Both the position numbers and the translations under genes were made by a program. Of a stretch of 64,000 nt of DNA, positions 5,803 to 47,387 are shown piece after piece (within the stretch, counting starts at the first letter, position 1; every line of letters starts with the position of its first letter). This stretch comes from an uncultured Anaerolinea sp. (GTDB lineage Bacteria; Chloroflexota; Anaerolineae; Anaerolineales; UBA4823): contig CAYQDU010000002.1 of NCBI GenBank assembly GCA_964416275.1, positions 1,282-65,281 on the forward strand, in the 5' to 3' direction. The notes beneath the pieces are model-generated. The model was not told the origin of the DNA. It saw nothing but the letters and a program-made list of their open reading frames with translations, and did not search any database.

Positions 5803-5820
5803 AGGCGTTGGGTCTCCGGT

Positions 5821-11138: not shown

Positions 11139-12443
11139 TCAGGCCGGCTTCTTTTCAGCCACGCCCCTCGAAGACCGCCCACCTTGTTTGATGATATAGA
11201 CCAGCGCCAGGGAAAGCAGCGCCAGCCCCAGGAAAAGGCTGAAGCCCGAAGCATATCCATGCATCCCCTGGCTGCGCACGATGGCGCCCAGCACGGGCGG
11301 GATCACAAACCCGCCGAATGCGCCCAGCCCACCGACCCAGCCAGTGACTCCACCCACCGCATCTGGGGCCGCCTGGGGAGTCAGCTTAAACACCGCCGCG
11401 CTCCCAATCCCCATCCCAAAGGCCAGCAGCAATTCGGCGCTCAGCGCTCCGGGCAAACCAGCAGCAAAGCGCATCAGCCCGGCGCCCGACAGGATGAACA
11501 GCAGGGCGATCGCAATGGTATTCTCACCGCCCAGCCGATCCGACAATCGGCCGCCCACAACCCGCATCAGCGAGGCGGTAATAGAGAACAAGCCTGTCAG
11601 CGCGCCGGCCTGAAGTACACCGAGGCCCTGATAGGCGACCCAATAAGTGGGCAGCCAGGCGGTAAGCGCCACAAACCCGCCAAACGTGGTGAAATAGATC
11701 CCCACCAGCGCCCAGGTCATCCAGCGCCGCGCCGAGCGTGAAAGGCTGACAACCAGGCTGCCAGAAGGGAAAATTTGCTGGCCGGCCTTCCGCGCCGTTT
11801 CAAGAGCCGGGCCGGGAGCCATACCCTGGGCGACCAGCTGGAAGTACGGCGCGTTCAGGCCGAAGCGATAATACAGCCCGGTTCCAACAGCCAGAAGCAG
11901 AAACCAGTCCAGGTAGGAAGCGCCCAGACCAAGCTGCACCAGCGCAACCGGCAGCACAAACGTAAAGACCCCCGGCGCCAGATTGCCCAAACCGGCATAC
12001 ACCCCTAATGCAGCGCCCTGACGCTCTTTTAGATGCCAGTAAGACAGCGTGCTGGCCCCCACCGAAAAGGTAGCAATCCCGCACCCGCTCAGCACCGCCA
12101 GGAACAGCAGCAGCGGATAGAGGCCGGGAGACAGCCGGTCTGGATAACTCCACAGGATTACGGCGGTCAGCCCGCCCATCCCCAACAGAGCCAGCGCCAG
12201 CAGGATCAGGAAAGGCTTGCGTCCGCCGGTGGCGTCCACCCAGGCGGCAAACGGGATGCGCAGCAGCGATCCTGATAACGACGGGGCGGCCACCAGAAAA
12301 GCGGTCATCATGGGAGTCAGCCCCAGGCCGTCTTTAATCCGCGCTACCGTTGGCCCAAACAACGCCACTGCGGCAAAGCCAAAGAAGAAACCAATGGTTG
12401 CGCCTGTCAGAGCGCGAGCAGAATTGCCTCGAATTTCATTCAT
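11139..12443 (-). CDS. narK: MFS nitrate/nitrite transporter (NarK/NasA-like)
   Basis: 434 aa with 12-TM MFS architecture (GFFFGFAAVALFGPT..., WVDATGGRKPF loop motif). It lies 15 nt downstream of narI on the same strand. The symbol is assigned from family resemblance plus context. Confidence 0.75.
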   Translation of the reverse strand: MNEIRGNSARALTGATIGFFFGFAAVALFGPTVARIKDGLGLTPMMTAFLVAAPSLSGSLLRIPFAAWVDATGGRKPFLILLALALLGMGGLTAVILWSYPDRLSPGLYPLLLFLAVLSGCGIATFSVGASTLSYWHLKERQGAALGVYAGLGNLAPGVFTFVLPVALVQLGLGASYLDWFLLLAVGTGLYYRFGLNAPYFQLVAQGMAPGPALETARKAGQQIFPSGSLVVSLSRSARRWMTWALVGIYFTTFGGFVALTAWLPTYWVAYQGLGVLQAGALTGLFSITASLMRVVGGRLSDRLGGENTIAIALLFILSGAGLMRFAAGLPGALSAELLLAFGMGIGSAAVFKLTPQAAPDAVGGVTGWVGGLGAFGGFVIPPVLGAIVRSQGMHGYASGFSLFLGLALLSLALVYIIKQGGRSSRGVAEKKPA

Positions 12444-12458
12444 GTTGGCACCCCAGGT

Positions 12459-13151
12459 CTATGATCGTTCTGGCATCTTCACCCGCCTGGCCCGCACCAC
12501 AATTTGCCAGGGCCGGAACAGGTAGCCGAGCGGGTAGGTGAGGATATGCACCAGCCGGCTGAACGGGAACACGATGAGCAGCGCAAAGAAATTGAAGACG
12601 TGCAGCCGGATCACAAACGGCAGCGGCGCAACCAGGGTGATCTGGGGTTGAAAGGTCAGCAGCGACCACAGGTAAGGGGTGAAAATCGCCGTGAACCAGG
12701 TGGAGCCGAAGCGGTAAACGGATGCCGTCCAGATGCCCGTAATGACCGACACCAGCAGCAGCGCCAGCACCACCCAGTCCATCGCAGAACTCACGACGCG
12801 CACTCGCCGCTCGCCAAACCGCCGCCAGACCAGGATCAGCAGCCCGCCCAGCGCCCAAATCGCCAGCCCCAGGCCCGTCAGCTCCAGCAGATACAACCGC
12901 AGGGGCTGAGCGTTCCAGGCCCGGATGGTGTTAGGGAAGAACAGCGCCGCCAGATGACCCAGCAAAATCAGCACGACGCCCCAATGAAACGAGATTGATC
13001 CCCAGTAAAGCTTCCTGCGCTCTAACAGTTGCGATGATAGGCTGGAGATAGTGAACGGTCGAAAGATCGACCGGTACACCAAGCCGACGATAAAGGCGGC
13101 CAGCGCCAGATATGGGAAGATCAAAAACAGGATTGTGTTCCAATCGATCAT
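12459..13151 (-). CDS. narI: respiratory nitrate reductase gamma subunit (cytochrome b)
   Basis: MIDWNTILFLIFPYLALAAFIVGLVYR..., HWGVVLILLGHLAALFFP and the C-terminal FSRLVHILTYPLGYLFRP are typical NarI. The ATGA overlap with the narJ stop is at 13148-13151. Confidence 0.9.
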   Translation of the reverse strand: MIDWNTILFLIFPYLALAAFIVGLVYRSIFRPFTISSLSSQLLERRKLYWGSISFHWGVVLILLGHLAALFFPNTIRAWNAQPLRLYLLELTGLGLAIWALGGLLILVWRRFGERRVRVVSSAMDWVVLALLLVSVITGIWTASVYRFGSTWFTAIFTPYLWSLLTFQPQITLVAPLPFVIRLHVFNFFALLIVFPFSRLVHILTYPLGYLFRPWQIVVRARRVKMPERS

Positions 13152-13651
13152 ATCTTCTGCCCTTCCAGTGCCTCTATCAATCCCAGGTAAGGGTTGCTGC
13201 TATCTTTCTCACGCAAACGAGCGGCCATTTTTTCAAGCGCCCGGTTGAACACCTGCCCCAGTTCGTCCGGAATGAAGCCGGCGGCGATGCAGCGCAAGAC
13301 CGGCGCCAGGTGATCGGGCAGTTCTCCGCCTGTCTCCACACCAGCCTGGCGGCAGGCTGCCTGCATCTGCGTCAGGAAGTTGCCCCGCCTGTAATCTTCG
13401 CCCCAGATATGGAAACCGATATAGGGCGGGGTAAGGGGGTCCAGGTCCCAGGTGCGGGTGTACAGTTCCTCCCATTCGCCCAGGCTCAGCCGCCCAACCT
13501 GCGCCAGGAAGCCCAGCAATGCGGCTCGCCGGGGATGCGCCGCCAGGCGACCGGCATCCAGGGTGAGCTGTTCGTGCAGGCCCGCAAACGGATAGCGAAA
13601 GGCGTCGGCATAGATGGCATAGGTCGCATCGCTGATGGTTGGGGTGATCAT
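13148..13651 (-). CDS. narJ: nitrate reductase molybdenum cofactor assembly chaperone
   Basis: 167 aa between narH and narI, with typical NarJ/TorD-like size and position (YAIYADAFRYPF..., LPDHLAPVLRCIA). Confidence 0.8.
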   Translation of the reverse strand: MITPTISDATYAIYADAFRYPFAGLHEQLTLDAGRLAAHPRRAALLGFLAQVGRLSLGEWEELYTRTWDLDPLTPPYIGFHIWGEDYRRGNFLTQMQAACRQAGVETGGELPDHLAPVLRCIAAGFIPDELGQVFNRALEKMAARLREKDSSNPYLGLIEALEGQKI

Positions 13652-13654
13652 GGT

Positions 13655-15163
13655 TCACTCCCCACGCCGCGGCGCTTGCAGGTAGCCCAGCCCGGCCTCG
13701 CCCTTGTGGGCCAGCGGGTCGCGCAGCGCTTCCACCGATAGCTCGCGGTGATAAGGGGGCAGCAAAAAGCGCTCGTCGAGGGTGGGCAGCGTGGTCAGGC
13801 GGTAGATGGCCTCTGCCTGGGCGGCGTCCAGCCCGGCCTCGACCAGCATGGCTTGCGTGGCCTCGTCCACATCACCTTCAACGCTCTGGCGCCGCTTATA
13901 GGCGCGCACCGCCAACAGCTTGCGCAGGATTGTGCGAATCGGGGCTTCATCACCGGCGCTGAACAGGTTTGCCAGGTATTTCACCGGCATACGGGCATCG
14001 TCCAGGTGGCGGAACAGCTCAAAGTCGTGAGCGTCATCGGATAGATCCAGTTTATACAGCCCTTCTTCGATTACGCTGACCACCGGTGAGAGCGGCAGGA
14101 TGTAGAACATCATCGCCAGCGTGCGGAATTCGGGATGCAGCGGCAGGGCCAGCCCCCACTGCTTGACGAACTTATAGACGGGCGATTTCTGGGCAGCCTC
14201 GATCCAGCCGGCATCCAGGCCGCTATCATAAGCGGCGGCGATCACCTGCGGGTCGAACGGGTCGAGGATAGCCGCCCGCTGCGCCGCCGCCAGATCGCGA
14301 GCTGGCCCCATAGCCGCTTCAGGCAGCCGGTCGGCGTCGTACAACAGCACGCCCATGTAGCGAATGCGCCCTACGCAGGAATGGGCGCAGGCCGGCGCCT
14401 GGCCGGTTTCCAGGCGTGGGAAGCACAGGATGCACTTCTCAGACTTGCCAGTGGCCCAGTTGTAATACACTTTCTTATAGGGGCAGGCAGCCACGCACAT
14501 GCGCCAGGCGCGGCACTTGTTCTCGTTCACCAGCACCACGCCGTCTTCGCTGCGCTTATAGATCGCCCCGGATGGGCAGGCGGCCACGCAGGCCGGGTTC
14601 AGACAGTGGTTGCAGATGCGCGGCAGATAGTTGAACACCAGCCGTTCCAGCTCGCTCAACTGCTCGCGCACCGTTTCCGGCAGGCCGTCCAGGTTCAGGT
14701 CGTTCTCGGCATACAGCTTCGACCCGCCCAGATCGTCATCCCAATTGGGGCCGCCCTTAATTTCCATCGGCTGCCCGGTAATCATCGAGATGGGGATAGC
14801 GGTGGGCTGGTCATCGCCGGCCGGGGCGTCGAACAGGTCCTTATACCGGAAAGTGAACGGCTCGTAGTAATCGTCCAGCTCCGGCAAGCTGGGGTTGTAG
14901 AAAAGTTTGAGCAGCCCGCCCAGCCTGGAGTGCAGGCGCAGGCGCAGCGCGCCATCCTTCATCTCCCATCCGCCGCGGAAATGCTGCTGATCTTCCCACT
15001 GGGTTGGGTAGCCGGTTCCTGGGCGGGTCTCGACGTTGTTCCACCACATATATTCCGCGCCCTTGCGGTCTGTCCACAGGTTCTTGCAGGCCACCGAGCA
15101 GGTATGGCAGCCGATACACTTATCCAGGTGGAAAAGCATGCTCATGTGCGCGCGTACTTCCAT
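13655..15163 (-). CDS. narH: respiratory nitrate reductase beta subunit (Fe-S)
   Basis: MSMLFHLDKCIGCHTCSVACKNLWTDRKGAEYMWWNNVETRPGTGYP, CNHCLNPACVAACPSGAIYKRSEDGVVLVNENKCRAWRMCVAACPYKKVYYNW. Canonical NarH. Confidence 0.95.
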   Translation of the reverse strand: MEVRAHMSMLFHLDKCIGCHTCSVACKNLWTDRKGAEYMWWNNVETRPGTGYPTQWEDQQHFRGGWEMKDGALRLRLHSRLGGLLKLFYNPSLPELDDYYEPFTFRYKDLFDAPAGDDQPTAIPISMITGQPMEIKGGPNWDDDLGGSKLYAENDLNLDGLPETVREQLSELERLVFNYLPRICNHCLNPACVAACPSGAIYKRSEDGVVLVNENKCRAWRMCVAACPYKKVYYNWATGKSEKCILCFPRLETGQAPACAHSCVGRIRYMGVLLYDADRLPEAAMGPARDLAAAQRAAILDPFDPQVIAAAYDSGLDAGWIEAAQKSPVYKFVKQWGLALPLHPEFRTLAMMFYILPLSPVVSVIEEGLYKLDLSDDAHDFELFRHLDDARMPVKYLANLFSAGDEAPIRTILRKLLAVRAYKRRQSVEGDVDEATQAMLVEAGLDAAQAEAIYRLTTLPTLDERFLLPPYHRELSVEALRDPLAHKGEAGLGYLQAPRRGE

Positions 15164-15200
15164 CGTCTTCTCCTATCGTTTCGATTGACCATCAGGAACA

Positions 15201-18200
15201 CTAAAATTCCACCTGATCGAGCTTGCGAACGAACACAAAGGTATCGCGGTTCACGCCCGTCGGCCCCCAGTAGTTGAACGCATAGGAAAACTGGGCGTAA
15301 CCGCCGCTCATCAGCACCGGCTTGAGCCGGATCCGGGTCATCGAGTTATTCATCCCTGCCCGGCGGCCGCGCCCCGGCGACTTCGGAATGCCAACCGTAC
15401 GTTCGGTGGCATGATAGACAAACACCGTCCCGGCCGGGATGCGGGCGGAAACGCTGGCCCGCTGCACAAATACACCGTTGTCGTTGTACAATTCGACCCA
15501 GTCATTGTCCTCGATGCCCAGTTCGGCCGCGTCTTTATCATTGAGCCAGACGGGGTAGCCGCCGCGCGATAGGGTCATCATGCGGTGGTTCTCCGAGTAG
15601 GTGGAGTGAATGCTCCACTTGCCATGCGGCGTAATGTAATTGAACAGCTTGCCGTGCTGCCCGGCCAGGAGGCTCTGGTCAGCATCGCTGACCATCGTGT
15701 GGTCGGGCTTGGGCTTGTAGACCGGTAGATGCTCGCCCCAGGCCAGGTAGCTCTCGTGATCCAGATAAAAATGCTGCCGCCCGGTAAGCGTGCGCCATGG
15801 CACCAGCCGGTCCACATTGAGCGTAAACGGCGAATACGCGCGGCCCTGATTGACAATGGCCGACCAGGTGGGCGCGGTCAGCACCCGCCGGGGCTGGGAG
15901 ACAAGGTCGGCAAACGAGTAGCGCACATCGCGCAGCCCTGCGGCCAGGTCGGTTAATTCCAGGCCGGTCTTATGCTCTTCTAACGCAAAGGCGCGGTGGG
16001 CCAGCTCGCCGTTGGAGGCCGGGTCCAAGCGCAGGATGGCATTGGCAGCCTGGCGGGCTTCCTCCAGCGAGGGATAGCACACCGGCTCAGCTTTCGAGCC
16101 ATCCGGCCCGCTGCCATTCCCGTTCGCCCGGGGCCATGATTTGCCAAAGGTGCGCGGCTGCTGGGCCAACAATGCCTGATATTCATCTGCGACCGGAATC
16201 GTCAGCCCATGCGCGTTTACCCCGTTCTGCTCGACGCCGCGCCCCAAACTGACCATACACTCGTACAGGCTGGTATAGTCACGCTCGATGACCCGGAACT
16301 TGGGCATTGTCTTTCCAGGGATCGGTTCGACTTCGCCAGTCTTCCAATCCTGCACCGTCGGCTGAGCCAGCTCGTCGGGGGTATCGTGCTGCAAGGGAAG
16401 CATGACGATGTCTTTGACCGGCTGGCGCAGATGGACGCGCGCAAATTCGCTGACCTTAAACGCCACCGCCTTGTAGATTTCCCAATCGCTCTTCGATTCC
16501 CATGCCGGCGGTACAACCGCCTGCATGGGGTTGATAAACGAATGCAGATCGGTGGTGTTCAGATCGTCTTTTTCGTACCAGGTGGCGGCCGGCAGCACCA
16601 GGTCCGAGTACAGCGCCGAGGTATCCATGCGGAAGTTCAGGTCTACCACCAGGTCGAGCTTGCCGGTGGGGGCCTGGGGATGATAGGCAACTTCGGAGGT
16701 GCAGCCCTGGGCCAGTTCGGCGGCGATGGTGTTGCTGTGCGTTCCCAGGTAATGGCGCATAAAGTATTCATGGCCCTTGGCGCTGGCGCCGATGGCGTTG
16801 CCGCGCCAGATGAACCACACCCGGGGCCAGTTTTCCGGCGCGTCTGGGTCTTCTACGGCGAACTTCAGGCGGCCCTGCTTCAACTGCGCCACAACGTGGT
16901 TGATGATCTCGGCGTCGGTAGCGGCCCCCTGATCCTGAGCTTCTTTGACCACAGCCAGCGGGCTGCGGTTGAACTGGGGGAAGAACGGCAGCCAGCCGCG
17001 CCGCACCGCTCGCACCTGATGATCGATGGTATGACCGCCGGCCAGGTCTGTTGCTCCGCCCGGCAGTGCATCGTAAGCGGCAAAGCCACGCTCGTAGCGC
17101 CATTGGTCGGAATGTACATAATGGAAGGAAGGCGTGTTCTGCTGGCGGGAAGCCATGCCCCAATCGCCGGCAAAAGCAATCGCGCCCCAGGAGGCGTGAT
17201 TAACCAGCTTCTCCTGCCCCACGTAGTGCGCCAGCCCGCCGCCGTTCACGCCCACGCTGCCGGTCAGCATCAGCGCTGTGATGGCCGAGCGATAGATCAG
17301 GTTGTTGTGATACCAGTGATTGGCCCCTGCGCCGATGATGACCAGGTTCTTGCCGTGGGTCTTCTCGGCATTGTGGCCCCACTCTCTGGCAAAGCGCAGC
17401 AGGGTGTCGCGGTGAATGCCGGTCAGCGACTCTTGCCAGGCGGGCGTGTAGCAGGCCTCCTCGTCATACGACTGCGGATACTCACCCGGCAGGCCGCGCC
17501 CCACCCCAAAGCGGGCCATGGTCAGGTCGAACACCGTCGCCACGGCCACGCGCCCGGCGCTGGTCTGCACGTAGCGCACCGGAACGCCGCGCCGCAAAAC
17601 CGTTCCGCTTTCAAAGGCGTCGAAGCCTAATTCCAAGACATCGTCATGCGCATCGAGGAAGCTCAATTCCGGGTCAAGCGCCGCGCTGGTGCTGGCGTCT
17701 TCCATCTTCAGGTTCCACTTGCCTGGGTCTTGCTTGCTCCAGCGAAAGCCAATACTGCCCTTCGGCATGCGAGCGGTATCGCTGGCCCGATCCCAGACCA
17801 GCAGCTTCCAATCCCCATGTTCCTCATCGGCATAGTCTGCCAGGCGGTTAGCGCGCAGGTATCGGCCGGGCGCAGCCCTCACCCCTGGCCCCTCTCCCCT
17901 GCCGGGAGAGGCGAAGCCCAAACCTTCTTGCCCCATCTCATCAGGGGAGGCGAGGGGAATCTCCACCAAAAAGGGCATATCGGTATACTGCTTCAGATAC
18001 GCATTGAAATACGGCGTCTGCCGGTCAACATAGAATTCTTTGAGCAGCACATGGTTGACCGCCATCCAAAAAGCGGCGTCTTGTCCAGCGTGTACCGGGA
18101 TCCAGTAATCGGCATATTTAGCCACCTGCGAAAAATCGGGCGAAAAAACCGTCAGCTTGGCCCCCGCGTGGCGCACTTCGGAGATGAAATGCGTGTCGGG

Positions 18201-18938
18201 CGTGCGGGTCATGTTCAGGTTGGCGCCCATAACGGCAATAAAGCGGGCGTTGTACCAGTCGGCCGATTCGTGCACGTCGGTCTGCTCTCCCCACACCTCC
18301 GGGCTGGCCGGCGGCAGGTCGCAGTACCAGTCATAGAAGCTCATCGGCACGCCCCCCAACAGCGATAGGAAACGGCTGCCGGCGGCGTAGCTGATCTGCG
18401 ACATGGCCGGAATGGGCGAAAAGCCCACCACCCGGTCGGGGCCGTACTGCTTGACCGTATAGATCACCGAGGCGGCAATAATTTCCAACGCCTCGTCCCA
18501 GGAGATGCGCCGGAAGCCGCCTTTGCCGCGCGCCGTCTGAATGGCGCGCCGCTTTTCCGGGTCAGAGACAAGCACCGCCCAGGCGGCCACCGGGTCGCTG
18601 TACTGCTTGCGCGCTTCCCGCCAGGCGTCGATCAGCGTCCCGCGCCCGTAGGGGTATTTCACCCGGATCGGGCTGTACAGATACCACGAGAAGCTGATGC
18701 CGCGCTGGCAGCCGCGCGGCTCATAAGGAGGCAGGCCGGCTTCAAGCTGCGGGTAATCGGTGGCCTGCAGCTCCCAGGTGACGATGCCATCTTTGACGAA
18801 CACCTCCCACGAGCAGCTCCCGGTGCAGTTCACGCCATGCGTGGTGCGCACACGCCGGTCGTGCTGAAAACGGTTGCGATAAAATTCCTCCCACTGACGC
18901 TCAGCGGGCGATTCGACATCCTTAGTCCACTCATCCAT
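15201..18938 (-). CDS. narG: respiratory nitrate reductase alpha subunit (Mo-bisMGD), cytoplasmic Nar/Nxr type, with an in-frame repeat-derived insertion
   Basis: FS0 motif [23 protein letters not shown]. 1245 aa. No twin-arginine signal. Followed by narHJI. Confidence 0.95.
17873..17962. repeat. palindromic repeat (arms CCCCTCTCCCCT / AGGGGAGGCGAGGGG) embedded in frame in narG, encoding ...[28 protein letters not shown]...
   Basis: The arms match the arms of the intergenic element at 37743-37878 (TCTCATC..AGGGGAG.GAGGGG). There is an internal small hairpin CCTCTCCC-CTGCC-GGGAGAGG. Confidence 0.65.
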
Positions 18939-18962
18939 CGGGGTCTTCTCCCATTTGTTCGG

Positions 18963-19826
18963 TTATACAGATTGGGCTGCGCCGCGGCCACGGCGGACAC
19001 GTTCGGCCGCCGATGTTGCCCAGCGCGGCCGGAAGGCCAGCATGACGACGAACAAGAGCAGCGTCAGGCCGGCGCCAATGATCGAGAACCAGGTCCCAGG
19101 CGTCACCAGAGCGGTGGGCGGCGGGAGCGCATCGCTGGCCTTGAAATACGCGATCAAGTCGGCCTGTTCCTGCGGCGAGAGGGGTTTATTCAGGAACGGG
19201 CCGGCCATGGTTGGGAAAGTGATCTGGTTCAAATTGGCGGTCAGGCCAGCCTCGCCGTAACGCTGCAGCACATGGGTCAGGTCTGGGCCCAGGCCGCCGC
19301 CGCCCAGGGGAACGACGCCCTGCACCGTATGGCAGGCCAGGCAGGCCGGGCCGCCGGCGCCCTGCGTCGTCTGTCCTATGAACAGCCGCCGTCCTGCCTC
19401 CGCGTCGCCCCCCGGCAGGCTCGCCGCCGGGCTGGTGGGCGCAGCCCCCACGCCGCCAGGGTTCTCCAGGTAAGCCAGCAGGGCCGCCACATCGGCTTCC
19501 GATAAGCCCAGGTTTGGCATAGGCACCTGGTTATTCTCGGCAAGCAACTGCTGCGCCACGGGGTCTCCAGAAGCAATCATCTTGTCTGGAGCGGAGATAA
19601 AACTGTGCAGCCAGTTCAGGTCTCGGCGCCGAGTCACGCCCTGCAAATCTGGCCCAACCAGTCTGCCGCTGCCAATCGTATGGCACGCGGCGCACTTTTG
19701 CCGGAACAGGGCCTGCCCATCCTGGGCGCTTTGCGCATCCAACCCGGCTGCGGCTGGCGAGAGCCGGGAGGCCAGCGCAAATGCGCTCATACAAAACAGC
19801 AGCACGGCAAGCAAATAACGTTTCAC
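18963..19826 (-). CDS. membrane-anchored dihaem cytochrome c
   Basis: Signal peptide MKRYLLAVLLFCMSAFALA. Two CxxCH motifs (CAACH, CLACH). C-terminal TM WFSIIGAGLTLLLFVVMLAF. GTG start at 19826 with GGAGGAA 5 nt upstream. Its stop lies 24 nt upstream of the narG start. Confidence 0.8.
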   Translation of the reverse strand: MKRYLLAVLLFCMSAFALASRLSPAAAGLDAQSAQDGQALFRQKCAACHTIGSGRLVGPDLQGVTRRRDLNWLHSFISAPDKMIASGDPVAQQLLAENNQVPMPNLGLSEADVAALLAYLENPGGVGAAPTSPAASLPGGDAEAGRRLFIGQTTQGAGGPACLACHTVQGVVPLGGGGLGPDLTHVLQRYGEAGLTANLNQITFPTMAGPFLNKPLSPQEQADLIAYFKASDALPPPTALVTPGTWFSIIGAGLTLLLFVVMLAFRPRWATSAAERVRRGRGAAQSV

Positions 19827-19868
19827 AGAGTTCCTCCGCTGGTTGGTTCTTCAAATGTCTGTTTTGCG

Positions 19869-20222
19869 TCAATCCTGGATCGGCAACCGGTAGATCAAAT
19901 CCAAAAAATCATGCCGGCTGGCCGCGGCCAGGTGTGAGCTGTAGATCTGCACCTGGTTGTTATCCAATGTCACCCGCAGAATTGGCAAGTTCGGATACTC
20001 ATCCAGGATTTGGGCGGTCAGACGCGATAAAGATTCACTTGTTTTGCCCTCATCGGCCAAAATGACCAGGTCGGGGGCGGCCTGTCTTAGCTTTTCCATG
20101 AAGGTGTCATCCACCCGCCAGTGGCCGGCCAATTCCAGGTCGTCAAGCTGGTTGAGCATTTGCTCGACGCCTTCCCCCAACAGGCCTTTTGCGCTAAACA
20201 GGAGAATTCGCTTTTTCCTCAT
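19869..20222 (-). CDS. small CheY-like receiver-fold protein with degenerate active site (pseudo-receiver), weak assignment
   Basis: 117 aa. RILLFSAKG (no acidic pair), DLVILADEG, PILRVTL. The receiver-like beta/alpha periodicity lacks the conserved DD and K. Confidence 0.35.
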   Translation of the reverse strand: MRKKRILLFSAKGLLGEGVEQMLNQLDDLELAGHWRVDDTFMEKLRQAAPDLVILADEGKTSESLSRLTAQILDEYPNLPILRVTLDNNQVQIYSSHLAAASRHDFLDLIYRLPIQD

Positions 20223-20243
20223 GCCCGACCTCCATCCGATACG

Positions 20244-20768
20244 TCACAACACCGTCGTTTTGAGGGTTTCTGCTTCACCAGCTTTATGCTTCGACAACCA
20301 GGCTGTCCCGGCTTCTTCCCGCGCCGCCCGGCCCTGCCATTCATCGCGTTCGGCGCGCCAATGCAGCATCTCTCCAATGCCGGATGCGGCCAGCACGAAC
20401 GATAGGGTCAGCCCGATGGGATATGCCAGCGCCAACAAGCCGGCCAGCGAAAGCGCCACCCACGTTCCGGCGCAGGTGGGGCAGCACAGCAGCTCGCTAA
20501 TCACCCGTTGCAGCCCGCGCCCGCACGCCTCCACCGACTTGCCCGCGCCGCTCGAATCATCGACCACATCAGTAAACGGGGCCCGCAGCCAGCTAAAAAT
20601 AAAGTTATAGGCCACCGCTCTACCGCCGCGAAATGCCGCTACGCCGACCAGGATCAGGGCCAGCGGATCGTGCAGCACCTGCGGGCTGGCGGATAAGGCC
20701 AGCAGGCTGACCGCGCCCATGAAAAGGAGCAGCAGCAAGACCAGATAGACGCCGATGCGTTGATTCAT
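20244..20768 (-). CDS. DUF1360-like small membrane protein
   Basis: Start moved to ATG 20768 (MNQRIGVYLVLLLLLF...), which forms an ATGA overlap with the upstream cytochrome c stop. FRGGRAVAYNFIFSWLRAPF ... ELLCCPTCAGTWVAL resembles DUF1360. Confidence 0.55.
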   Translation of the reverse strand: MNQRIGVYLVLLLLLFMGAVSLLALSASPQVLHDPLALILVGVAAFRGGRAVAYNFIFSWLRAPFTDVVDDSSGAGKSVEACGRGLQRVISELLCCPTCAGTWVALSLAGLLALAYPIGLTLSFVLAASGIGEMLHWRAERDEWQGRAAREEAGTAWLSKHKAGEAETLKTTVL

Positions 20769-21937
20769 GGCTGCAGCGTTCTCAGCCAGGCGATGATATC
20801 GGCAATCTGCTGCTCGGTCAGGCGGTCGGCAAAACCAGCCATGGCGGTTCCAGGGCGGCCGGTCTGGATGAAGTGCAGCAGGTCGGCGCTCGTTTGGCCC
20901 TGTACAAAGGCGCTGTTGTGCAGCGGCAGGCCCACCCCACCTTCGCCCTGCTGTCCATGACAGGCGGCGCATTGCGCCAAAAAGAGCTGATTGCCGGTCT
21001 GCGGGTCGCCAGGAGGCCAGTTCTGCTTGAGATCGGCCAGGGCCTGGGCGGCGCCTTTCACCTCCCCGGCCTGAATTTGGGCCAGGATGGATTGCAGCAA
21101 ACTGGCGGCCTGGCCCTGGCTGACCTCTATCGCCCGCTTCAGATGAAGCTGAGCGCTGGCCGGATCATCCTGAGAAAGGGCAAAGCGGGCCTGGTCGAGC
21201 AGCTGCGTCACAGAATAGGCAGGCTGGACGGCTTTCCCTGCTCGCCAGGCGCCAATCAGCGCTACCAGGTCGTCGATTTGCGCCGGCGAAAGCACCGTTC
21301 CCCAGGTGGGCATCCCCCTGGCCGGGCGGCCATTGGCGATCACGCTGCGGTACCAGTCATCGCCAAAGCTGCCCAGCCGGGCCGCATCATTCAGGGCGGG
21401 AATGCCGGGGTTGCCGCCGCGGCCATCTTCGCCGTGGCAAACCACACAGGTCGAGGCAAACAGCAGCGCGCCCTGGGCCGGGTCCGCCGGGCGGGCCGCG
21501 GCAGGCAAGATTTCGGGGGCGGTTGGCTCCCAGGCGCGCATAAACGCCACCACGTCGCGGATCTCCTCATCGGTCAGCGGGCCGCCAAAGTCCACGCTCC
21601 AGGATGGCATCTGCGTATTCGGCACACCCGAACGAACGACCGAAAAGAAGACCGTATCAGAAGTATTTTTCAACACCTTGCGGTTGTTCAACGCCGCGCC
21701 AACCCCGCCTTCGCCGCTGTTTCCATGGCAGGCGGCGCACTGTGCGGCATAGGTTTTCTCGCCGCGCGCGATGCGATCTTCCTGGATCAGGGCGGCGGCC
21801 CCGCCCAGGCGTTGGCCTTCTCCAAGCCAGTAGATACCCAGGCCAAACAGAATCAGCAGCGCCAGCGTCAGCCCAGCGACCTGAAGCCCGGTGTAATCCT
21901 CACGCTCGACAATTGGTTGGATGCGTGCGCCATTCAT
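20765..21937 (-). CDS. membrane-anchored trihaem cytochrome c (three class I cyt c domains)
   Basis: CAACHGNSGEGG, CVVCHGEDGRGG, CAACHGQQGEGG. N-terminal TM LQVAGLTLALLILFGLGIYWL. Start moved to ATG 21937 (MNGARIQ), 2 nt after the Rieske stop. Confidence 0.8.
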   Translation of the reverse strand: MNGARIQPIVEREDYTGLQVAGLTLALLILFGLGIYWLGEGQRLGGAAALIQEDRIARGEKTYAAQCAACHGNSGEGGVGAALNNRKVLKNTSDTVFFSVVRSGVPNTQMPSWSVDFGGPLTDEEIRDVVAFMRAWEPTAPEILPAAARPADPAQGALLFASTCVVCHGEDGRGGNPGIPALNDAARLGSFGDDWYRSVIANGRPARGMPTWGTVLSPAQIDDLVALIGAWRAGKAVQPAYSVTQLLDQARFALSQDDPASAQLHLKRAIEVSQGQAASLLQSILAQIQAGEVKGAAQALADLKQNWPPGDPQTGNQLFLAQCAACHGQQGEGGVGLPLHNSAFVQGQTSADLLHFIQTGRPGTAMAGFADRLTEQQIADIIAWLRTLQP

Positions 21938-21939
21938 CG

Positions 21940-22443
21940 TCACACCTTCAGCGCCTGACCCGGCTGATACGAACTGCGCTCGACCGGCCGGCTGGTGTCT
22001 ACCCACACCTCGCCGTTCACCACCTTAACCGGGAAGATGTCCATCGGACGCGGCGCCGGCCCCCCGGCGACCTCGCCCTTCGAATTGAACAACGAGCCAT
22101 GACAGGGGCAGTGAAACTGGCCTTCCGCTTCTGCATACGGCACCGAGCAGCCCAGGTGGGTGCACTTCTGGTACAGCGCCAGCAGCCCGTCGGCAGTGTG
22201 GCTGATGTAAAAACGGCCGGCCAGGACGCGGTTCACGCTGCCGGGTGGGAACTCTTGCAATGTTCCGGCGTAGACCATCCCCCCAAATCCCTGGGCTTGG
22301 GGTGGGCGCAGGAATTTGAGCAGCGCTCCCATCCATGCGCCGCCCAGGGCCGCCAGGCTGCCGGCAAAGGCAACCCCCAGGAACTCGCGCCGGCTAAAGG
22401 CCTGCATTTTGGTTTTTAGAGTTGTATGAGTTGTGGCATTCAT
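21940..22443 (-). CDS. Rieske 2Fe-2S subunit of a cytochrome bc/b6f-type complex
   Basis: Tat-like SRREFLGVAF. Rieske boxes CTHLGCSVPY and CPCHGSLF. Confidence 0.9.
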   Translation of the reverse strand: MNATTHTTLKTKMQAFSRREFLGVAFAGSLAALGGAWMGALLKFLRPPQAQGFGGMVYAGTLQEFPPGSVNRVLAGRFYISHTADGLLALYQKCTHLGCSVPYAEAEGQFHCPCHGSLFNSKGEVAGGPAPRPMDIFPVKVVNGEVWVDTSRPVERSSYQPGQALKV

Positions 22444-22505
22444 TCCGCATCGGCTCCCATTTTCATCCCGTCGAAGAGGGTTAAATTCGGCGCTGTCATC
22501 GTTGT

Positions 22506-23273
22506 TTAGAGATTATCCAGAGGGCTGTAGCCGCCGGGCATATTCCACGGCCAATACAGGTGAAAACCAGGGCCGCGGAAGAAGAAACCGATCAGCGTAA
22601 ACACCACCGCCGAGACAAACAGCAGCGTGAACAGGGCGATCATCATCTCTCTGGCATTCGGCCGGTAGCGGCGCAGCGCCAGCGGCGGCGCAGACACGAT
22701 CAAGCCCATCATCAACGCCGGGATGATGATTTGCGCCACCCAATCGGGCGTGAGGCCGCGCAGCAGCTCGCGCGGCGGGAAAGCGTTATCAAGCAAGACG
22801 TAAACCGGCATGACCACCAGCGCATACAGGGCGGTCAGCAGGGCAATCTTCCGGCCGCGCCGGGAAGTAAACCAGCGTCCAGAGCCTTGCCGGCTGTTAT
22901 CCAGGTAGGGGATTGCCAGCACAAACAGCACCATGATCGTGGGCAAGATGACAGCCATCAGGGTGGGGTGGCCGTGTTCTAGCATTTCCTGCAGGCCCAT
23001 AAAATACCAGGGCGCTTTGGCCGGGTCGGTAGTGGTATTGGGGTTGGCAAACGCTTCCAGCGGCGCATTCCGCCCGATAGACATAAACAGCAGCGCCGCT
23101 CCTAAAATCAGCGCCAGCAAGATTTCAATCAGGGCCACCACCGGGAAGGCAAACACGGTGTTATCGGGGCCTTTTTCGACCATCGTGGTCGGCGCGCCGC
23201 GCACCAGTTCTACCAATGTATAGGTCTTTACGCCGTTTTGAGGAAAAGCGTTTTTTTCAGGAAGCTGAATCAT
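22506..23273 (-). CDS. cytochrome b C-terminal domain / subunit IV-like protein
   Basis: PAKAPWYFMGLQEMLEH (PEWY-type motif region), multi-TM. The start overlaps the cyt b6 stop (23270-23273). Confidence 0.85.
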   Translation of the reverse strand: MIQLPEKNAFPQNGVKTYTLVELVRGAPTTMVEKGPDNTVFAFPVVALIEILLALILGAALLFMSIGRNAPLEAFANPNTTTDPAKAPWYFMGLQEMLEHGHPTLMAVILPTIMVLFVLAIPYLDNSRQGSGRWFTSRRGRKIALLTALYALVVMPVYVLLDNAFPPRELLRGLTPDWVAQIIIPALMMGLIVSAPPLALRRYRPNAREMMIALFTLLFVSAVVFTLIGFFFRGPGFHLYWPWNMPGGYSPLDNL

Positions 23274-24013
23274 TGCGCCAGTTCCTTTCGATCATCATCC
23301 TGGGCCGCCAGGCCGCCGTCTTTGCGCACTCGCCATAGATGCACGCTGGTCAACAGGGCGATGCCCAGGGGGATAAAAATGACGTGCAGGGCATAGAAGC
23401 GAGTGAGCGCCGGCTGCCCGATTTCCGGGCCGCCCAGCAGGAAGGACTTGACCACCTGGCCGCCCACCGGCGCATACCCGGCCACGCTGGTTCCCACCGT
23501 GATGGCCCAGTAGGCAAGCTGATCCCACGGCAGCAGATAGCCGGTGAAACTGGCGCCAAATGTCAGCAAGAGCAGCATCACCCCGATCACCCAGTTGAAC
23601 TGGCGCGGCGGCTTATACGCGCCGGTGTAGAACACCCGCGCCATGTGCAGCACCACCACAAGCACCATCAGGTGCGCGCCCCAGCGGTGCATATTGCGCA
23701 GCAGCTGCCCAAACGACACCGCGGTTTGCAGGCGCACAATATCACTGTACGCATGCTCCACGGCCGGGGTGTAGTAGAACATCAGCAGCATCCCGGTCAG
23801 CGTCAGGGCGGCAAAGGCCAGCACAGACAGCACGCCCAATCCGAACGAATAGGCCCAGCGCAGGCTCTTACGACTCACCTTGACGGGGTGGAGATGAAAA
23901 AACAGGCTGCTGGTCATCACCAGCGAACGATCCAGCGGATTATCCGGCCAGCCATGCCGAAAAATCGAGCGCCATACCCGCGATTGGGTCACGTATTGAA
24001 CGACCTGACTCAT
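23270..24013 (-). CDS. cytochrome b6-type (N-terminal four-helix) cytochrome b
   Basis: LRNMHRWGAHLMVLVVVLHMARVFYTGAYKPPRQFNWVIGVMLLLLTFGASFTGYLLPWDQLAYWA ... FYALHVIFIPL. The start overlaps the stop of the upstream oxidoreductase (ATGA at 24010-24013). Confidence 0.9.
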   Translation of the reverse strand: MSQVVQYVTQSRVWRSIFRHGWPDNPLDRSLVMTSSLFFHLHPVKVSRKSLRWAYSFGLGVLSVLAFAALTLTGMLLMFYYTPAVEHAYSDIVRLQTAVSFGQLLRNMHRWGAHLMVLVVVLHMARVFYTGAYKPPRQFNWVIGVMLLLLTFGASFTGYLLPWDQLAYWAITVGTSVAGYAPVGGQVVKSFLLGGPEIGQPALTRFYALHVIFIPLGIALLTSVHLWRVRKDGGLAAQDDDRKELAQ

Positions 24014-26007
24014 GCCACACTCCCTTCATACGCTAAGGTTTCCCGAAAGCGAAAGGCTTCCATCGTGATCGCCCCCGTTGGGCAGCGCCTGGCGCACAAC
24101 CCGCAGCGGGTGCATATCGTATCGTCCTTAATCATGGCCGCCAGAGACGATGAATTACCCGCCGCATCAAGCAGAGCAGCCGCCTCGCCAGCGCCGGCTA
24201 AAGATTGGGCCAAAACGATCTTCAAACAATCCCATGGGCAGACATCTACACAGCCGTTACACAGGATGCACTTCGAGCCGTCGAATACGGTGTTGATGCC
24301 GCACTCCAGGCAGCGCAGCGCCTGGAAGTGAGCGGCATCTTCAGGATAGCTCGATTCGATTTGCGCAAGCCCGGTGCGGCGTTCCAGCGGCGTGGAGGGC
24401 GGCCTGGCGCGCATGTAATCCAGCCAGCCGGCGGGCATCTGGTGATCGGGGATCTCCGTCCAGGCGGTGGATAGCCCGGTTTTCAGCCGGCGGCCCTGCA
24501 GGGTTTCTTCGATGCCCAGGGCGGCAATGTGTCCATCGCGTACGGCGTGGATAATCAGGCGCGGGCCATAGGCGGCGTCTCCCCCGGCAAAAATATTGGC
24601 AACCGAGGTGCGCCCCGTTGCCGGGTCGATTGCTACCAGCCCGCGCGGGGTAACCTGAATATCCTCCGCGCCCTTCAACAGGCTCAGATCGGCGGCTTGC
24701 CCAATCGCCAGGATGATGCTGTCGCACTCCCACACGCGCTCGCTGCCCGGCACAAGGCGCGGGTTAAAGCGCCCGGTTTCATCGAACACACTGGCTACGT
24801 CGATGACTTCCAGCCCGGTCACCCGGCCGCCTGGCCCGATGATCCGCACCGGCCCGTGCCGGGGGTGAATGTGAATGCCTTCTTCCAGCGCTTCGTCTAA
24901 CTCCTGGCGCGAGGCCGGCATTTCGTCCCAGGATTCCAGGGCGATAATGCTTACTTCGGCCACGCCCAGGCGCAGCGCCGTGCGGGCCACATCCAGGGCG
25001 GTATGCACGGCCTCGCTCTGTTCTTCGGCGGCTTCCGCCTTTGGCGCAGCGCTGGTTTTTGCCGCCGGGGCCGCCGCAGCGGCAGCAATCCCCAGCCGCA
25101 GCGCCGTGCGCGCCGCATCCATCGCCACATCGCCGCCGCCCACCACGACCACCCGCTTGCCCAAATCGACGCGGTATCCCAGGTTGTAGTTCAGCAGCAA
25201 GTCCACGGCCGGGATGACCCCATCCAGCGTGACGCCTTCAAGGTTCAACCGGCGGCCCTGCATCAACCCCACGCCCAGGTAGAGGGCGTCGAAGTCCTGG
25301 CGCAACTGCGAGAGCGGAAGATCCACTCCAATGCGGGTCTCAAAGCAGAATTTGACCCCCAGAGAGCGGATCGATTCGACTTCCATATCCATGGCGTCCC
25401 AATCCACCCGGTAGATCGGCACGCCCAGGCGCATCATGCCGCCCGATTTGGAGGAAGCGTCGAACACGGTGACTTCATGTCCCAGCAGAGCCAGGTCGTG
25501 AGCGGCTGTCAGCCCGGAAGGCCCTGCGCCGATCACCGCCACGCGGCCGATGCGCCGTCCCGGCTGTTCGGCCAGCGCGGCCAGGGTTTCCCGCGACCAG
25601 CGGGCCGTTGAGAAATCCATACCCGGCGCGCCCGGCCCATGTCCCAACTGGCTGCCGGCCAGCAGGAACTGCGCCGAGGCCTCTCCGCCAGGCATGCGGC
25701 GCACCGATTCTGGCCCATAGCGTTCGGTCAGGACGCGCTTCAACGGGCGGATGGCAACCGGCTGGCGTTCGGGGCCAAAATCGCCGCGGCGGCATGCGGC
25801 TTCGCACGGCGCGCCGCAAATCTGGCCGCATACCGTAGACAGCGGGTTGGGATCGTGGGCAATCTGATAGCCCAATTCATACTCCCCGCGCCACAGCGCC
25901 TGAAGATAGCCGCGCGCATCGGTTAGCACCGGGCAGGCCGCCTGGCATTTCACCATCTTGCGATAATATTCTGCATCGGGAACAATGACGGGATATTTTG
26001 CTTCCAC
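24010..26007 (-). CDS. GltD/NfnB/SudA-like NAD(P)H-dependent FAD oxidoreductase with N-terminal 4Fe-4S region and C-terminal 2x[4Fe-4S] ferredoxin domain
   Basis: CQAACP...NPLSTVCGQICGAPCEAACRR; VAVIGAGPSGLTAAHDLALLGHEVTVFDASSKSGGMMRLGVPIYR; GGGDVAMDAARTALRLG; C-terminal CLECGI...CILCNGCVDVCP and CTRCGLCARRCP. The track start is GTG 26028. GTG 26007 follows GGAGG with 5-nt spacing and is preferred. Confidence 0.85.
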   Translation of the reverse strand: MEAKYPVIVPDAEYYRKMVKCQAACPVLTDARGYLQALWRGEYELGYQIAHDPNPLSTVCGQICGAPCEAACRRGDFGPERQPVAIRPLKRVLTERYGPESVRRMPGGEASAQFLLAGSQLGHGPGAPGMDFSTARWSRETLAALAEQPGRRIGRVAVIGAGPSGLTAAHDLALLGHEVTVFDASSKSGGMMRLGVPIYRVDWDAMDMEVESIRSLGVKFCFETRIGVDLPLSQLRQDFDALYLGVGLMQGRRLNLEGVTLDGVIPAVDLLLNYNLGYRVDLGKRVVVVGGGDVAMDAARTALRLGIAAAAAAPAAKTSAAPKAEAAEEQSEAVHTALDVARTALRLGVAEVSIIALESWDEMPASRQELDEALEEGIHIHPRHGPVRIIGPGGRVTGLEVIDVASVFDETGRFNPRLVPGSERVWECDSIILAIGQAADLSLLKGAEDIQVTPRGLVAIDPATGRTSVANIFAGGDAAYGPRLIIHAVRDGHIAALGIEETLQGRRLKTGLSTAWTEIPDHQMPAGWLDYMRARPPSTPLERRTGLAQIESSYPEDAAHFQALRCLECGINTVFDGSKCILCNGCVDVCPWDCLKIVLAQSLAGAGEAAALLDAAGNSSSLAAMIKDDTICTRCGLCARRCPTGAITMEAFRFRETLAYEGSVA

Positions 26008-26081
26008 AATTGCCTCCAATATAAGCACAGAATATCAGGCCGGCCGCCTCCCTGCCATCCGTCGCAACGTAGTGGAAGAAT

Positions 26082-26115
26082 GAAAGAAGAGCGATGTCCG
26101 CATCGCTCTTCTTTC
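26082..26115 (-). terminator. 15-bp perfect stem / 4-nt loop hairpin, probable terminator of the narL-like gene
   Basis: GAAAGAAGAGCGATG-TCCG-CATCGCTCTTCTTTC. On the minus strand it is followed by ATTCTTCC. It lies downstream of the response regulator stop (26282) and upstream of the oxidoreductase start. Confidence 0.45.
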
Positions 26116-26149
26116 AAAAGAATTAGGGCTATTCTGGCTTAGGGAAGGC

Positions 26150-26281: not shown

Positions 26282-26935
26282 TCATAACAGGCCGCGCTGG
26301 CGGGCAACCTGCGCCGCCCGCCGGCGGTTGCTGACGTGCAGCTTGGCCAGGATATTGCGCATGTGGGTCTTAACCGTATGTAGACTCAGCGACAGGCTGG
26401 CGGCAATCTCCTTATCGCTTTGGCCGGCTGCGGCCAGCGCCAACACCGCCCCCTCGCGTTCGGTCAGCCGGTCGCGCTCGGCCTCGCTCTCATCGGGGGC
26501 AATGCGACTCAGCCGGCGAAACTCTTCCAATATATGCACCGCTATCGCCGGATCAATCGGCGCTTCGCCAACGGCCGCGCCGCGCAGGGCAGCCACCATT
26601 TCTTTGGCGCGCATGTTTTTGAGCAGATAGCCGCGCGCTCCGTTCTTAATGGCCTGGAAAAGCTTGTCTGGCTCTTCACGCACCGTCAGGATCAGGACAA
26701 CCGTTTCCGGGCAAGCCTGCACGATCTGCCGGGTGGCTTCCAGACCGTCCAGTACCGGCATCTGAATATCCATCAGGATGATATTGGGGCAAAGCTCGCG
26801 GGCTTTGACCACGGCCTCCAGCCCGTCCTCTGCTTCGCCAACTACTTCCATATCCGGCTGGGCGGCAATGATTCCCGCCAGGCCCTCGCGAAACAGGCAG
26901 TGATCATCGGCCAGCAAAACTCGCAGCTTCGGCAT
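26282..26935 (-). CDS. NarL/FixJ-family response regulator (REC + LuxR-type HTH)
   Basis: LRVLLADDHCLFREG..., ILMDIQMPVLDG, C-terminal LTEREGAVLALAAAGQSDKEIAASLSLSLHTVKTHMRNILAKL. Confidence 0.9.
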   Translation of the reverse strand: MPKLRVLLADDHCLFREGLAGIIAAQPDMEVVGEAEDGLEAVVKARELCPNIILMDIQMPVLDGLEATRQIVQACPETVVLILTVREEPDKLFQAIKNGARGYLLKNMRAKEMVAALRGAAVGEAPIDPAIAVHILEEFRRLSRIAPDESEAERDRLTEREGAVLALAAAGQSDKEIAASLSLSLHTVKTHMRNILAKLHVSNRRRAAQVARQRGLL

Positions 26936-28870: not shown

Positions 28871-28911
28871 AAAACTTCTCAATCTTCTGGTCGTTACGGC
28901 CTGTATTCCGA

Positions 28912-40023: not shown

Positions 40024-40053
40024 GCGCCACCTGAAAGATTATCGAAGAAGGTT

Positions 40054-40839: not shown

Positions 40840-40865
40840 TGGATTTAGGGGTTAGGATCTCTGAT

Positions 40866-41696: not shown

Positions 41697-41730
41697 TAGC
41701 AGGCCCTGTCGGTTGGGGAAAAGGGAGAAA

Positions 41731-47379: not shown

Positions 47380-47387
47380 GCCGAACA

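Follow-up and report, generated by a model that had tools for sequence, protein, structure and literature searches.

A 64,000-nucleotide stretch of DNA from an uncultured Anaerolinea sp. (assembly GCA_964416275.1, contig CAYQDU010000002.1; hereafter the window) carries a string of thirteen genes (11139-26028) in which a Rieske/cytochrome b (R/b) module with an NAD(P)-linked flavoprotein is fused to a Thermus-type narC-narGHJI-narK nitrate reductase operon. Each half belongs to a known family; the novelty appears to lie in their fusion, which seems to be undescribed. Across many Chloroflexota the fusion is conserved, and it was re-created in Acidimicrobiia. The joining of these two known halves suggests that electrons reach the nitrate reductase via a bc-type complex and not straight from quinol, and we give an even chance to the reading that the region is a nitrate-regulated string which directly wires the R/b complex over the dihaem cytochrome NarC to the Nar enzyme.

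The original prediction had described thirteen co-directional genes with overlapping or nearly contiguous junctions behind a NarX/NarL-like pair, and the structure of the string bears this out. All thirteen minus-strand open reading frames (ORFs) are present, the four ATGA start/stop overlaps claimed at 24010-13, 23270-73, 20765-68 and 13148-51 were found when each junction was read, and the remaining junctions (62, 2, 21, 42, 24, 37, 3 and 15 nt) stay within the 62 nt given as the upper limit. The gene names are backed by Pfam, NCBIfam and PDB sequence searches, and the domain content of the upstream kinase and regulator is that of a NarX/NarL-type two-component system (Table 1). The start of the trihaem cytochrome c gene is most likely ATG 21937, 2 bases past the Rieske stop codon, the earlier GTG at 22006 making the protein too long; likewise, DUF1360 most likely starts at 20768, the start in the ORF list being too early. 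The sensor kinase probably begins downstream of its listed GTG, and its homologues at the same position in relatives comprise 641-667 residues. A spacer of 253 nt separates the NarL-like gene from the first gene of the string. Consensus scans within the string found 5 promoter-like sites compared to 4.5 expected and 19 terminator-like sites compared to 17.4 expected; counts at chance level neither support nor refute a single transcript, and the thirteen genes are presumably co-transcribed. For the dihaem cytochrome as well as the flavoprotein, the closest relatives all derive from metagenome-assembled genomes (MAGs) of Chloroflexota/Anaerolineales; a 99-100% identical copy is present on short public contigs, and the next best matches share 69-79% identity.

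Conservation of the arrangement was surveyed by tblastn with 15 window proteins against 80 species-representative genomes centred on NarC. The full order of histidine kinase, response regulator, flavoprotein, cytochrome b6, subunit IV, Rieske protein, trihaem cytochrome c, pseudo-receiver (pREC), NarC, narGHJI and narK is found in 12 of these 80 genomes, and partial versions of the colinear order, interrupted by contig ends, in four more, which amounts to 16 of the 49 determinable genomes (the module was called absent only with at least 7 kb of upstream sequence). Five further colinear clusters were obtained, three from exact-protein look-ups and two on metagenome contigs (L084, L092). The adjacency, for which the original prediction had proposed a search in relatives, is thus conserved in 16 species-level genomes and further contigs, with protein identities of 55-80%. 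Because the colinear order recurs across species-level genomes and metagenome contigs, the arrangement is more than a product of chance. In a metagenome scan centred on the flavoprotein, modules of flavoprotein, b6, subunit IV and Rieske protein turned out to be widespread (32-66% flavoprotein identity), and two other layouts with nar genes were encountered: in L090, L129, L154, L115 and L136 the module is preceded by narGHJI-narK, and in L137 and L151 NarC-narGH is divergent from it. The clade comprising L115, L136, L137 and L151 belongs to the Acidimicrobiia (Ilumatobacter, Microthrixaceae), so that nar adjacency occurs in three arrangements and two phyla.

By its sequence features, the module is of a known but little-studied kind, namely a split b6/Rieske complex of the APWY clade with a flavo-iron-sulphur (FeS) subunit and the architecture described for anammox bacteria. 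The flavoprotein contains six invariant cysteines in two groups in its N-terminal domain (Fer4_20), Rossmann motifs for FAD and NAD(P) and a CxxCxxCxxxC motif that occurs twice towards the C-terminus, which makes four FeS sites in all; neither a transmembrane (TM) helix nor a signal peptide is predicted for it. Besides the ATGA overlap of its gene with that of cytochrome b6 in the window, adjacency to b6 was found by tblastn in about 70 loci. Alignment of cytochrome b6 to the b6 of 7r0w revealed all four haem-ligand histidines. The cysteine of the CxGG motif that binds haem ci (cn) is replaced by glycine (FGLG versus YCLG), and no cysteine occurs at that position in 76 b6 homologues; haem ci was accordingly rejected as a constituent of the complex. 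A conserved N-terminal extension of b6 carries His51, which is invariant in the 76 homologues. Models of the anammox complexes place an additional b haem at the dimer interface, with a histidine of the N-terminal b6 segment (Kuste4571 His43) as its ligand, and His51 may be the counterpart of this Kuenenia residue. Subunit IV shows five hydropathy peaks (residues 45-63, 103-121, 143-161, 182-200 and 210-228), a five-helix form having been described for anammox R/b complexes (PMC12954380), and the Qo motif APWY is present in the window protein and in all 41 subunit-IV sequences compared. The Rieske protein combines a twin-arginine translocation (TAT) motif, SRREFLG at residues 17-23, with the cluster motifs CTHLGC...CPCHGSLF, and its top PDB matches are 9rk4 (Kuste4569, E 2e-19) and 9rk3 (Kustd1480, E 3e-16). 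In CPCHGS-L-F the serine is present and the tyrosine absent, as in Kustd1480, whose potential was measured at +335 mV (PMC12954380). The place of cytochrome c1/f is taken by the trihaem cytochrome c with an N-terminal TM anchor and CxxCH motifs at residues 67, 164 and 323.

The APWY clade of split cytochromes b was delineated by Kao & Hunte in 2014 and includes Chloroflexi, Planctomycetes and the acidimicrobial Ilumatobacter; none of its members was characterised, and the paper mentions neither a flavoprotein subunit nor a link to nitrate reductase (PMC4122944). Among described R/b complexes, only those of Kuenenia stuttgartiensis (Kuste4569-4574 and Kustd1480-1485) combine an NAD(P) oxidoreductase on the cytoplasmic side with a five-helix subunit IV and a multihaem cytochrome c, and they are proposed to bifurcate the electrons of quinol to a high-potential acceptor and NAD(P)+ (PMC12954380). 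They resemble the window module in the split b6 and five-helix subunit IV, the serine in CPCHGS, the multihaem cytochrome c replacing cytochrome f and the in-cluster cytoplasmic FAD/NAD(P) flavoprotein with four FeS sites (PMC12954380), the likeness of the latter to Kuste4570/Kustd1483 being one of described architecture. Kuenenia differs by a hexa- or octahaem cytochrome c instead of the trihaem class-I type, by an HAO-like subunit that is absent from the window module, by a modelled haem ci and by the gene order. Furthermore, the partner in the window is NarC-NarGHI, and the hosts are Chloroflexota and Acidimicrobiia and not anammox Planctomycetes.

The same module occurs in other genomic contexts. 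In L083 and L164 (60-65% flavoprotein identity) it follows a ba3-type oxidase operon, consisting of CoxIIa, COX2, haem O synthase and COX1, together with a small cytochrome c; a ba3-type oxidase and a cytochrome c also adjoin it in L085, L086, L089 and L091, and L165 has the genes of a cytochrome c peroxidase and a cytochrome c in front of it. More oxidase-linked modules were recovered in both clades by tblastn with the oxidase proteins, and the trihaem cytochrome c is found in oxidase-linked modules as well. Among 27 determinable loci centred on the flavoprotein (GltD) in clades A and B, the neighbours are nar genes in 11, oxidase genes in 10, both in one, a peroxidase in one and none of these in four (Chloroflexota-type clade: 8, 6, 0, 1 and 2; Acidimicrobiia-type clade: 3, 4, 1, 0 and 2, in the same order). 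Neighbour-joining analysis of cytochrome b6 gave a tree in which nar and oxidase contexts interleave. As the module adjoins oxidase and peroxidase genes too, it is not nar-specific and corresponds to a complex III of general use that the nar operon has recruited; its cytochrome-c-dependent neighbours (oxidase, peroxidase, nar) imply that it behaves as a forward quinol:cytochrome c reductase. It thus behaves as the complex III of this lineage, repeatedly placed beside terminal enzymes fed by c-type cytochromes. By analogy, NarC would be the cytochrome-c entry point of Nar. A reverse operation had been suggested for the APWY complexes (PMC4122944), whereas the contexts found here favour the forward direction. 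A third type of flavoprotein-linked R/b cluster was observed in L135, L138 and L159, in the order flavoprotein, Rieske protein, b6 and subunit IV, with genes of large multihaem cytochromes behind them; L138 then continues with a distant molybdopterin enzyme, which shares 22% identity with NarG, and its NarH-like partner.

The nar half is likewise of a known kind, its sequences identifying it as a Thermus-type narC-narGHJI-narK operon. NarG, NarH and NarI exceed the NCBIfam equivalog cut-offs (TIGR01580, 1492 versus 1084 bits; TIGR01660, 630 versus 524; TIGR00351, 128 versus 106), and the NarJ-like protein is a marginal match (Pfam, 22.5 bits versus a cut-off of 22.2; NCBIfam, 36 versus 59). 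NarG shares 74% identity with Thermus thermophilus NarG over the full length. It lacks a twin-arginine leader, and its N-terminus aligns from residue 1 with that of the cytoplasmic Thermus enzyme, which identifies it as a cytoplasm-facing respiratory nitrate reductase. Relative to Thermus NarG it contains two insertions, at residues ~326-355 and 923-955. In NarI, the equivalents of the E. coli haem ligands H56, H66, H187 and H205 are invariant. We regard as extremely improbable that the system runs in reverse as a nitrite oxidoreductase, in which electrons would leave via NarC to a backward-running R/b complex as with the Nitrobacter-type enzyme. NarC-type clusters do resemble the Nitrobacter nxr cluster (PMC7694296), and this scenario would match the reverse operation once suggested for APWY complexes (PMC4122944); however, NarG is accompanied by a NarX/NarL-type pair and a NarK-type transporter, and the location of the module beside terminal oxidases fits forward operation. 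The assignment as a nitrite oxidoreductase was rejected on the 74% identity to the characterised Thermus nitrate reductase and the narG equivalog score above cut-off.

The dihaem cytochrome c in front of narG had been considered unexplained by textbook nitrate respiration in the original prediction; this part does not hold, as it is the known arrangement of Thermus NarC (PMC7694296). In plasmid records, tblastn placed a homologue immediately 5' of narG on megaplasmids of Thermus thermophilus, and the NarC of pTHTHE1601, where the annotated order is c-type cytochrome, narG, narH, chaperone, narI and MFS (major facilitator superfamily) transporter, is 35% identical to the window protein (E 2e-21). 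NarC is a membrane-bound periplasmic dihaem cytochrome, described for Thermus as binding NarI and as required for the maturation and attachment of NarG (PMC7694296). The window protein has an N-terminal signal-like segment and a C-terminal TM helix (residues 247-265) followed by a basic tail, corresponding to an outward-facing haem domain, and its gene is 24 nt away from narG. NarC-narGHJI adjacency was found in all 80 species-representative loci retrieved with the NarC profile, among them MAGs labelled Geobacter, Acidobacteriota, Tectomicrobia, Rokuibacteriota and Thiomargarita.

Two accessory genes lie between the trihaem cytochrome c and NarC. A profile of 25 homologues of the 117-residue protein matches the neighbouring NarL-type receivers (hhalign 95.7%, E 1e-8, 111 columns), in agreement with its earlier designation as a pseudo-receiver. 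This family does not conserve the residues equivalent to D10, D11 and D56, for which the window protein has F, S and A, and K106 falls into a gap; homology to receivers with loss of the acidic pair and of the phospho-acceptor aspartate defines it as a pseudo-receiver. Its gene is directly upstream of NarC in 46 of the 80 loci. A single-sequence AlphaFold2 model reached a predicted local distance difference test score (pLDDT) of 67, and Foldseek returned nothing at E <= 0.001. DUF1360 is located between narI and narK in relatives and between the trihaem cytochrome c and pREC only in the window; it therefore belongs to the nar side and was moved in the window.

The NarL-like regulator is conserved upstream of the cluster in 51 loci, and the spacer that follows it contains a conserved composite leader. 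Its consensus consists of a palindrome AAGAACTA(A/G)TTCTT with 7-2-7 geometry, a hairpin AAAGAGCGAT...ATCGCTCTTTTTT, the sequence CATTCC and, ~15 nt further on, GAGGGATTC. The palindrome of the leader is AAGAACTAGTTCTT; in the window its left half-site is degenerate. The element is also located at 9335-9420 of L015. The leader core is present in 34-37 of 44 spacers between the regulator and the next gene, irrespective of whether the latter encodes NarC, pREC or the flavoprotein. In the hairpin, 5 of 13 stem pairs covary, and none of 500 shuffles reached the observed score. Comparison with Rfam gave no family match, only sub-threshold chance matches. Candidate roles of the element are a terminator, an attenuator or a terminator/operator/promoter cassette. 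The presence of a common leader before either the GltD-like gene or pREC/NarC indicates that the module was probably inserted between a pre-existing nar leader and pREC-narC. Right past the stop codon of the regulator (26225-26269, minus strand), two overlapping and mutually exclusive hairpins were additionally noticed. The short one, TCCGCCGAAGGCGGA followed by TTTTGT, is terminator-like; the other, with a 15-bp stem GCGGATTTTGTCGCC / GGCGACAAAATCCGC, would sequester the 3' arm and the T-run of the short hairpin.

Dependence of nitrate reduction on a bc complex is already precedented in haloarchaea, Methanoperedens, Streptomyces Nar1 and Campylobacter Nap. The haloarchaeal Rieske/cytochrome b-Nar systems and the Methanoperedens model share R/b genes in or near the nar cluster and a proposed electron path from quinol via the R/b complex and a carrier to Nar (PMC3509893, PMC4683180). 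They differ in that their Nar faces outward (TAT-exported pNarGH) and lacks both NarI and the flavoprotein, the nar-linked haloarchaeal cytochrome b being unsplit. In the window NarG is cytoplasmic, NarI is present and electrons would need to re-cross the membrane via NarI, which leaves a functional analogy only. In Streptomyces Nar1 and Campylobacter Nap, nitrate reduction is experimentally R/b-dependent (PMC7931247, PMC6195509). Streptomyces Nar1 is a cytoplasm-facing NarGHI of a monoderm; it needs the bcc-aa3 supercomplex and co-purifies with its components (PMC7931247). In both organisms, however, the genes are not in one cluster, and neither a NarC-type cytochrome nor an NAD(P)-linked subunit is involved. 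The narCGHJIK(T) cluster of the Thermus nitrate respiration conjugative element resembles the window in the anchored dihaem cytochrome c gene directly 5' of narG, in the narJ, narI and MFS transporter genes that follow and in a dedicated NAD(P)H-linked enzyme beside nar (PMC7694296). In contrast, the Thermus cluster is devoid of Rieske/b genes, and repression of complex III under denitrification has been reported; Nrc, the additional dehydrogenase, comes from another family, the regulators are DnrS/DnrT/DrpAB and not NarX/NarL-like, and neither the pseudo-receiver nor DUF1360 is present. In the literature available as full text, with most subscription journals outside, we found no account of an APWY-clade R/b complex with an NAD(P)-linked subunit joined to a narCGHJI operon whose enzyme faces the cytoplasm, nor of its recurrence in Chloroflexota and Acidimicrobiia.

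Based on these data we propose the following scenario. The complex of b6, subunit IV and Rieske protein would oxidise menaquinol at its Qo site (APWY), the high-potential electron passing from the Rieske protein to the membrane-anchored trihaem cytochrome c and further to the membrane-anchored NarC. From there it would be transferred inward across the membrane via the two NarI haems to NarH and NarG, and nitrate would be reduced in the cytoplasm. The low-potential electron would travel via the b haems to the four FeS clusters and the FAD of the NfnB/GltD-like subunit and would most likely reduce NAD(P)+, instead of or besides quinone, in a quinol-based bifurcation as proposed for anammox bacteria. 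Compared with quinol oxidation by NarI only, this route would add a Q-cycle or bifurcation step to the redox loop; if the low-potential electron returned to quinone, a Q cycle would still be added to the Nar loop. Energetically, electron transfer from menaquinol (~-70 mV) to nitrate (+420 mV) releases ~490 mV per electron, and that to NAD(P)+ (-320 mV) costs ~250 mV (values from PMC12954380 and PMC6195509), so that nitrate could drive NAD(P)+ reduction as proposed for nitrite in Kuenenia. From gene order and sequence features we infer the physical association of the two halves, the electron flow from the trihaem cytochrome via NarC to NarI and the direction of the NAD(P) branch. In its furthest form, the scenario would comprise one supercomplex performing quinol bifurcation with nitrate as the driving acceptor, where per two menaquinols two electrons would be delivered to nitrate via the Rieske protein, trihaem cytochrome c, NarC, NarI and NarGH and two uphill to NAD(P)H; we consider this form rather unlikely.

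The flavoprotein might also serve as input instead of output within the same wiring, NAD(P)H feeding the quinone-reduction side or the b haems and the assembly acting as an NAD(P)H:nitrate respirasome like Nrc-Nar of Thermus. Enzymes of the NfnB/GltD family are reversible NAD(P)H flavoproteins, and the carrier hosts are presumably heterotrophs in which NAD(P)H is abundant. The Thermus nar cluster, moreover, includes the NADH dehydrogenase nrcDEFN, and two-hybrid data link NrcE with NarI (PMC7694296). However, the flavoprotein is unrelated to the Nrc subunits, the haem ci cysteine is absent, and the serine of the high-potential Rieske protein, as in Kustd1480, fits a very low-potential b branch and NAD(P)+ reduction (PMC12954380). 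We hold an input function to be improbable.

The direct wiring from the R/b complex to Nar has to be weighed against a somewhat unlikely alternative, in which the two halves are co-regulated and electrically independent: NarGHI would be fed by menaquinol via NarI, the R/b complex would serve later cytochrome-c-dependent steps (nitrite, NO or N2O reductases, a peroxidase or a micro-oxic oxidase encoded elsewhere), and NarC would act in maturation or as an exit for electrons, as has been proposed in Thermus. Several observations speak for this alternative or against the direct wiring. In 33 of the 49 determinable genomes the cluster reads histidine kinase, response regulator, pREC, NarC and narGHJI without the module, and with two thirds of the determinable NarC clusters lacking it, NarC-Nar evidently works without an adjacent R/b complex. 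The module, in turn, also pairs with oxidase and peroxidase genes. In NarI, arginine occupies the position of E. coli K86 in all 61 NarC-type sequences; a loss of the quinol site in module-bearing clusters was looked for in this set, and neither this residue nor the haem ligands differ with or without the module, a test that does not discriminate. NarI may therefore oxidise menaquinol directly, as judged from these residues. Thermus NarC has a maturation role and is proposed to carry electrons out of Nar to nitrite and NO reductases, i.e. in the opposite direction (PMC7694296), and inward transfer from c haems to NarG opposes the membrane potential and would require c haems with a rather low potential. 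In L015, a second full leader copy, including the terminator-like hairpin, lies between the trihaem cytochrome c and pREC, so that the two halves there are probably separate transcripts with a leader copy each. Finally, the haem ci cysteine with which the anammox complexes are modelled is missing, and the likeness of the flavoprotein to its Kuenenia counterparts is one of architecture.

Electrical independence of the halves is in turn opposed by several features of the locus. No nir, nor, nos or nrf gene was detected among the ORFs of the 64-kb window scanned with Pfam (18 of them outside the cluster), and NarC-NarGHI is the only sink for reduced c-type haems encoded in the string. In the window, the module and the nar half are packed so closely that a second regulatory region would not fit between them. 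Nar adjacency has been regained in three arrangements and two phyla, which exceeds the usual outcome of common regulation. All c-type cytochromes of the string are membrane-anchored and thereby favour fixed partners; in monoderm bacteria, membrane-anchored c-type cytochromes go with fixed supercomplexes. The originally predicted dedicated chain that links NAD(P)H, quinone, cytochrome c and nitrate is only partly sustained: the conserved and recurrent adjacency and the common leader are in its favour, and the module is not dedicated to nar.

Table 1. Genes and leader element of the nitrate reductase region in the window, with the basis of each assignment.
Feature	Position	Strand	Basis
NarX-like sensor histidine kinase	26948..29212	-	Pfam: PilJ/NarX-type sensor, HAMP, GAF, HisKA_3, HATPase
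NarL-like response regulator	26282..26935	-	Pfam: receiver and GerE/LuxR helix-turn-helix
Conserved composite leader	26057..26130	-	palindrome box 26130-26118, hairpin and T-run 26113-26078, GACGGAT box 26063-26057
NfnB/GltD-like flavoprotein, cytoplasmic	24010..26028	-	Fer4_20, Pyr_redox_2, C-terminal 2x[4Fe-4S]
Cytochrome b6	23270..24013	-	Pfam; alignment to 7r0w b6
Subunit IV homologue	22506..23273	-	weak PF00032 match; 5 predicted TM helices
Rieske 2Fe-2S protein	21940..22443	-	cluster motifs, TAT motif
Trihaem class-I cytochrome c	20765..21937	-	3 CxxCH, N-terminal TM helix
DUF1360 membrane protein	20244..20768	-	Pfam
Stand-alone degenerate (pseudo-)receiver (pREC), 117 aa	19869..20222	-	profile-profile match; no Pfam match
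NarC, dihaem cytochrome c	18963..19826	-	2 CxxCH, C-terminal TM helix; Thermus NarC homologue
NarG, catalytic subunit	15201..18938	-	TIGR01580
NarH, FeS subunit	13655..15163	-	TIGR01660
NarJ-like chaperone	13148..13651	-	weak match
NarI, dihaem b membrane subunit	12459..13151	-	TIGR00351; haem ligands
NarK-family MFS nitrate/nitrite transporter	11139..12443	-	family match; under subfamily cut-off

Elsewhere in the window, a second membrane redox module is encoded at 2471-7206 on the minus strand. It consists of an NrfD-like membrane protein that ends in a multihaem cytochrome c3 domain (617 aa), a 258-aa HybA-like 4Fe-4S protein, an ORF of 234 aa that has no Pfam match and a CCG-domain, HdrD-like FeS protein (461 aa). 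A polyphosphate kinase 1 gene followed by two consecutive PPK2 genes is found at 37879-41774 (minus strand). Three long ORFs have no Pfam match at E <= 1e-5, namely 29433-31298 (minus strand, 621 aa), 46956-48920 (plus strand, 654 aa) and 49652-51250 (plus strand, 532 aa); the first of them, immediately 5' of the sensor kinase gene, falls in a stretch of unusually high AT skew.

The locus bears on the role of R/b complexes of the APWY clade with an NAD(P) oxidoreductase, which are uncharacterised outside the anammox models, on the purpose of NarC and on the feeding of a cytoplasm-facing NarGHI by a bc-type complex, as hinted at by Streptomyces Nar1. The gene fusion names the likely partners and supplies nitrate as a candidate driving acceptor, and the Acidimicrobiia, which have cultured members such as Ilumatobacter, offer organisms in which the wiring idea is testable. 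If the supercomplex existed in the form outlined above, it would represent a 'reverse electron transport' independent of the proton motive force or an extended Q cycle, and both the NAD(P)-linked R/b complexes known from anammox bacteria and NarC would gain a defined function. Chloroflexota and Acidimicrobiia would then possess such a system widely, and O2 or H2O2 would be able to replace nitrate as its driver. For abundant bacteria of wastewater, the subsurface and sediments, a different H+/e- yield would have to be expected from nitrate respiration, should the wiring prove real.

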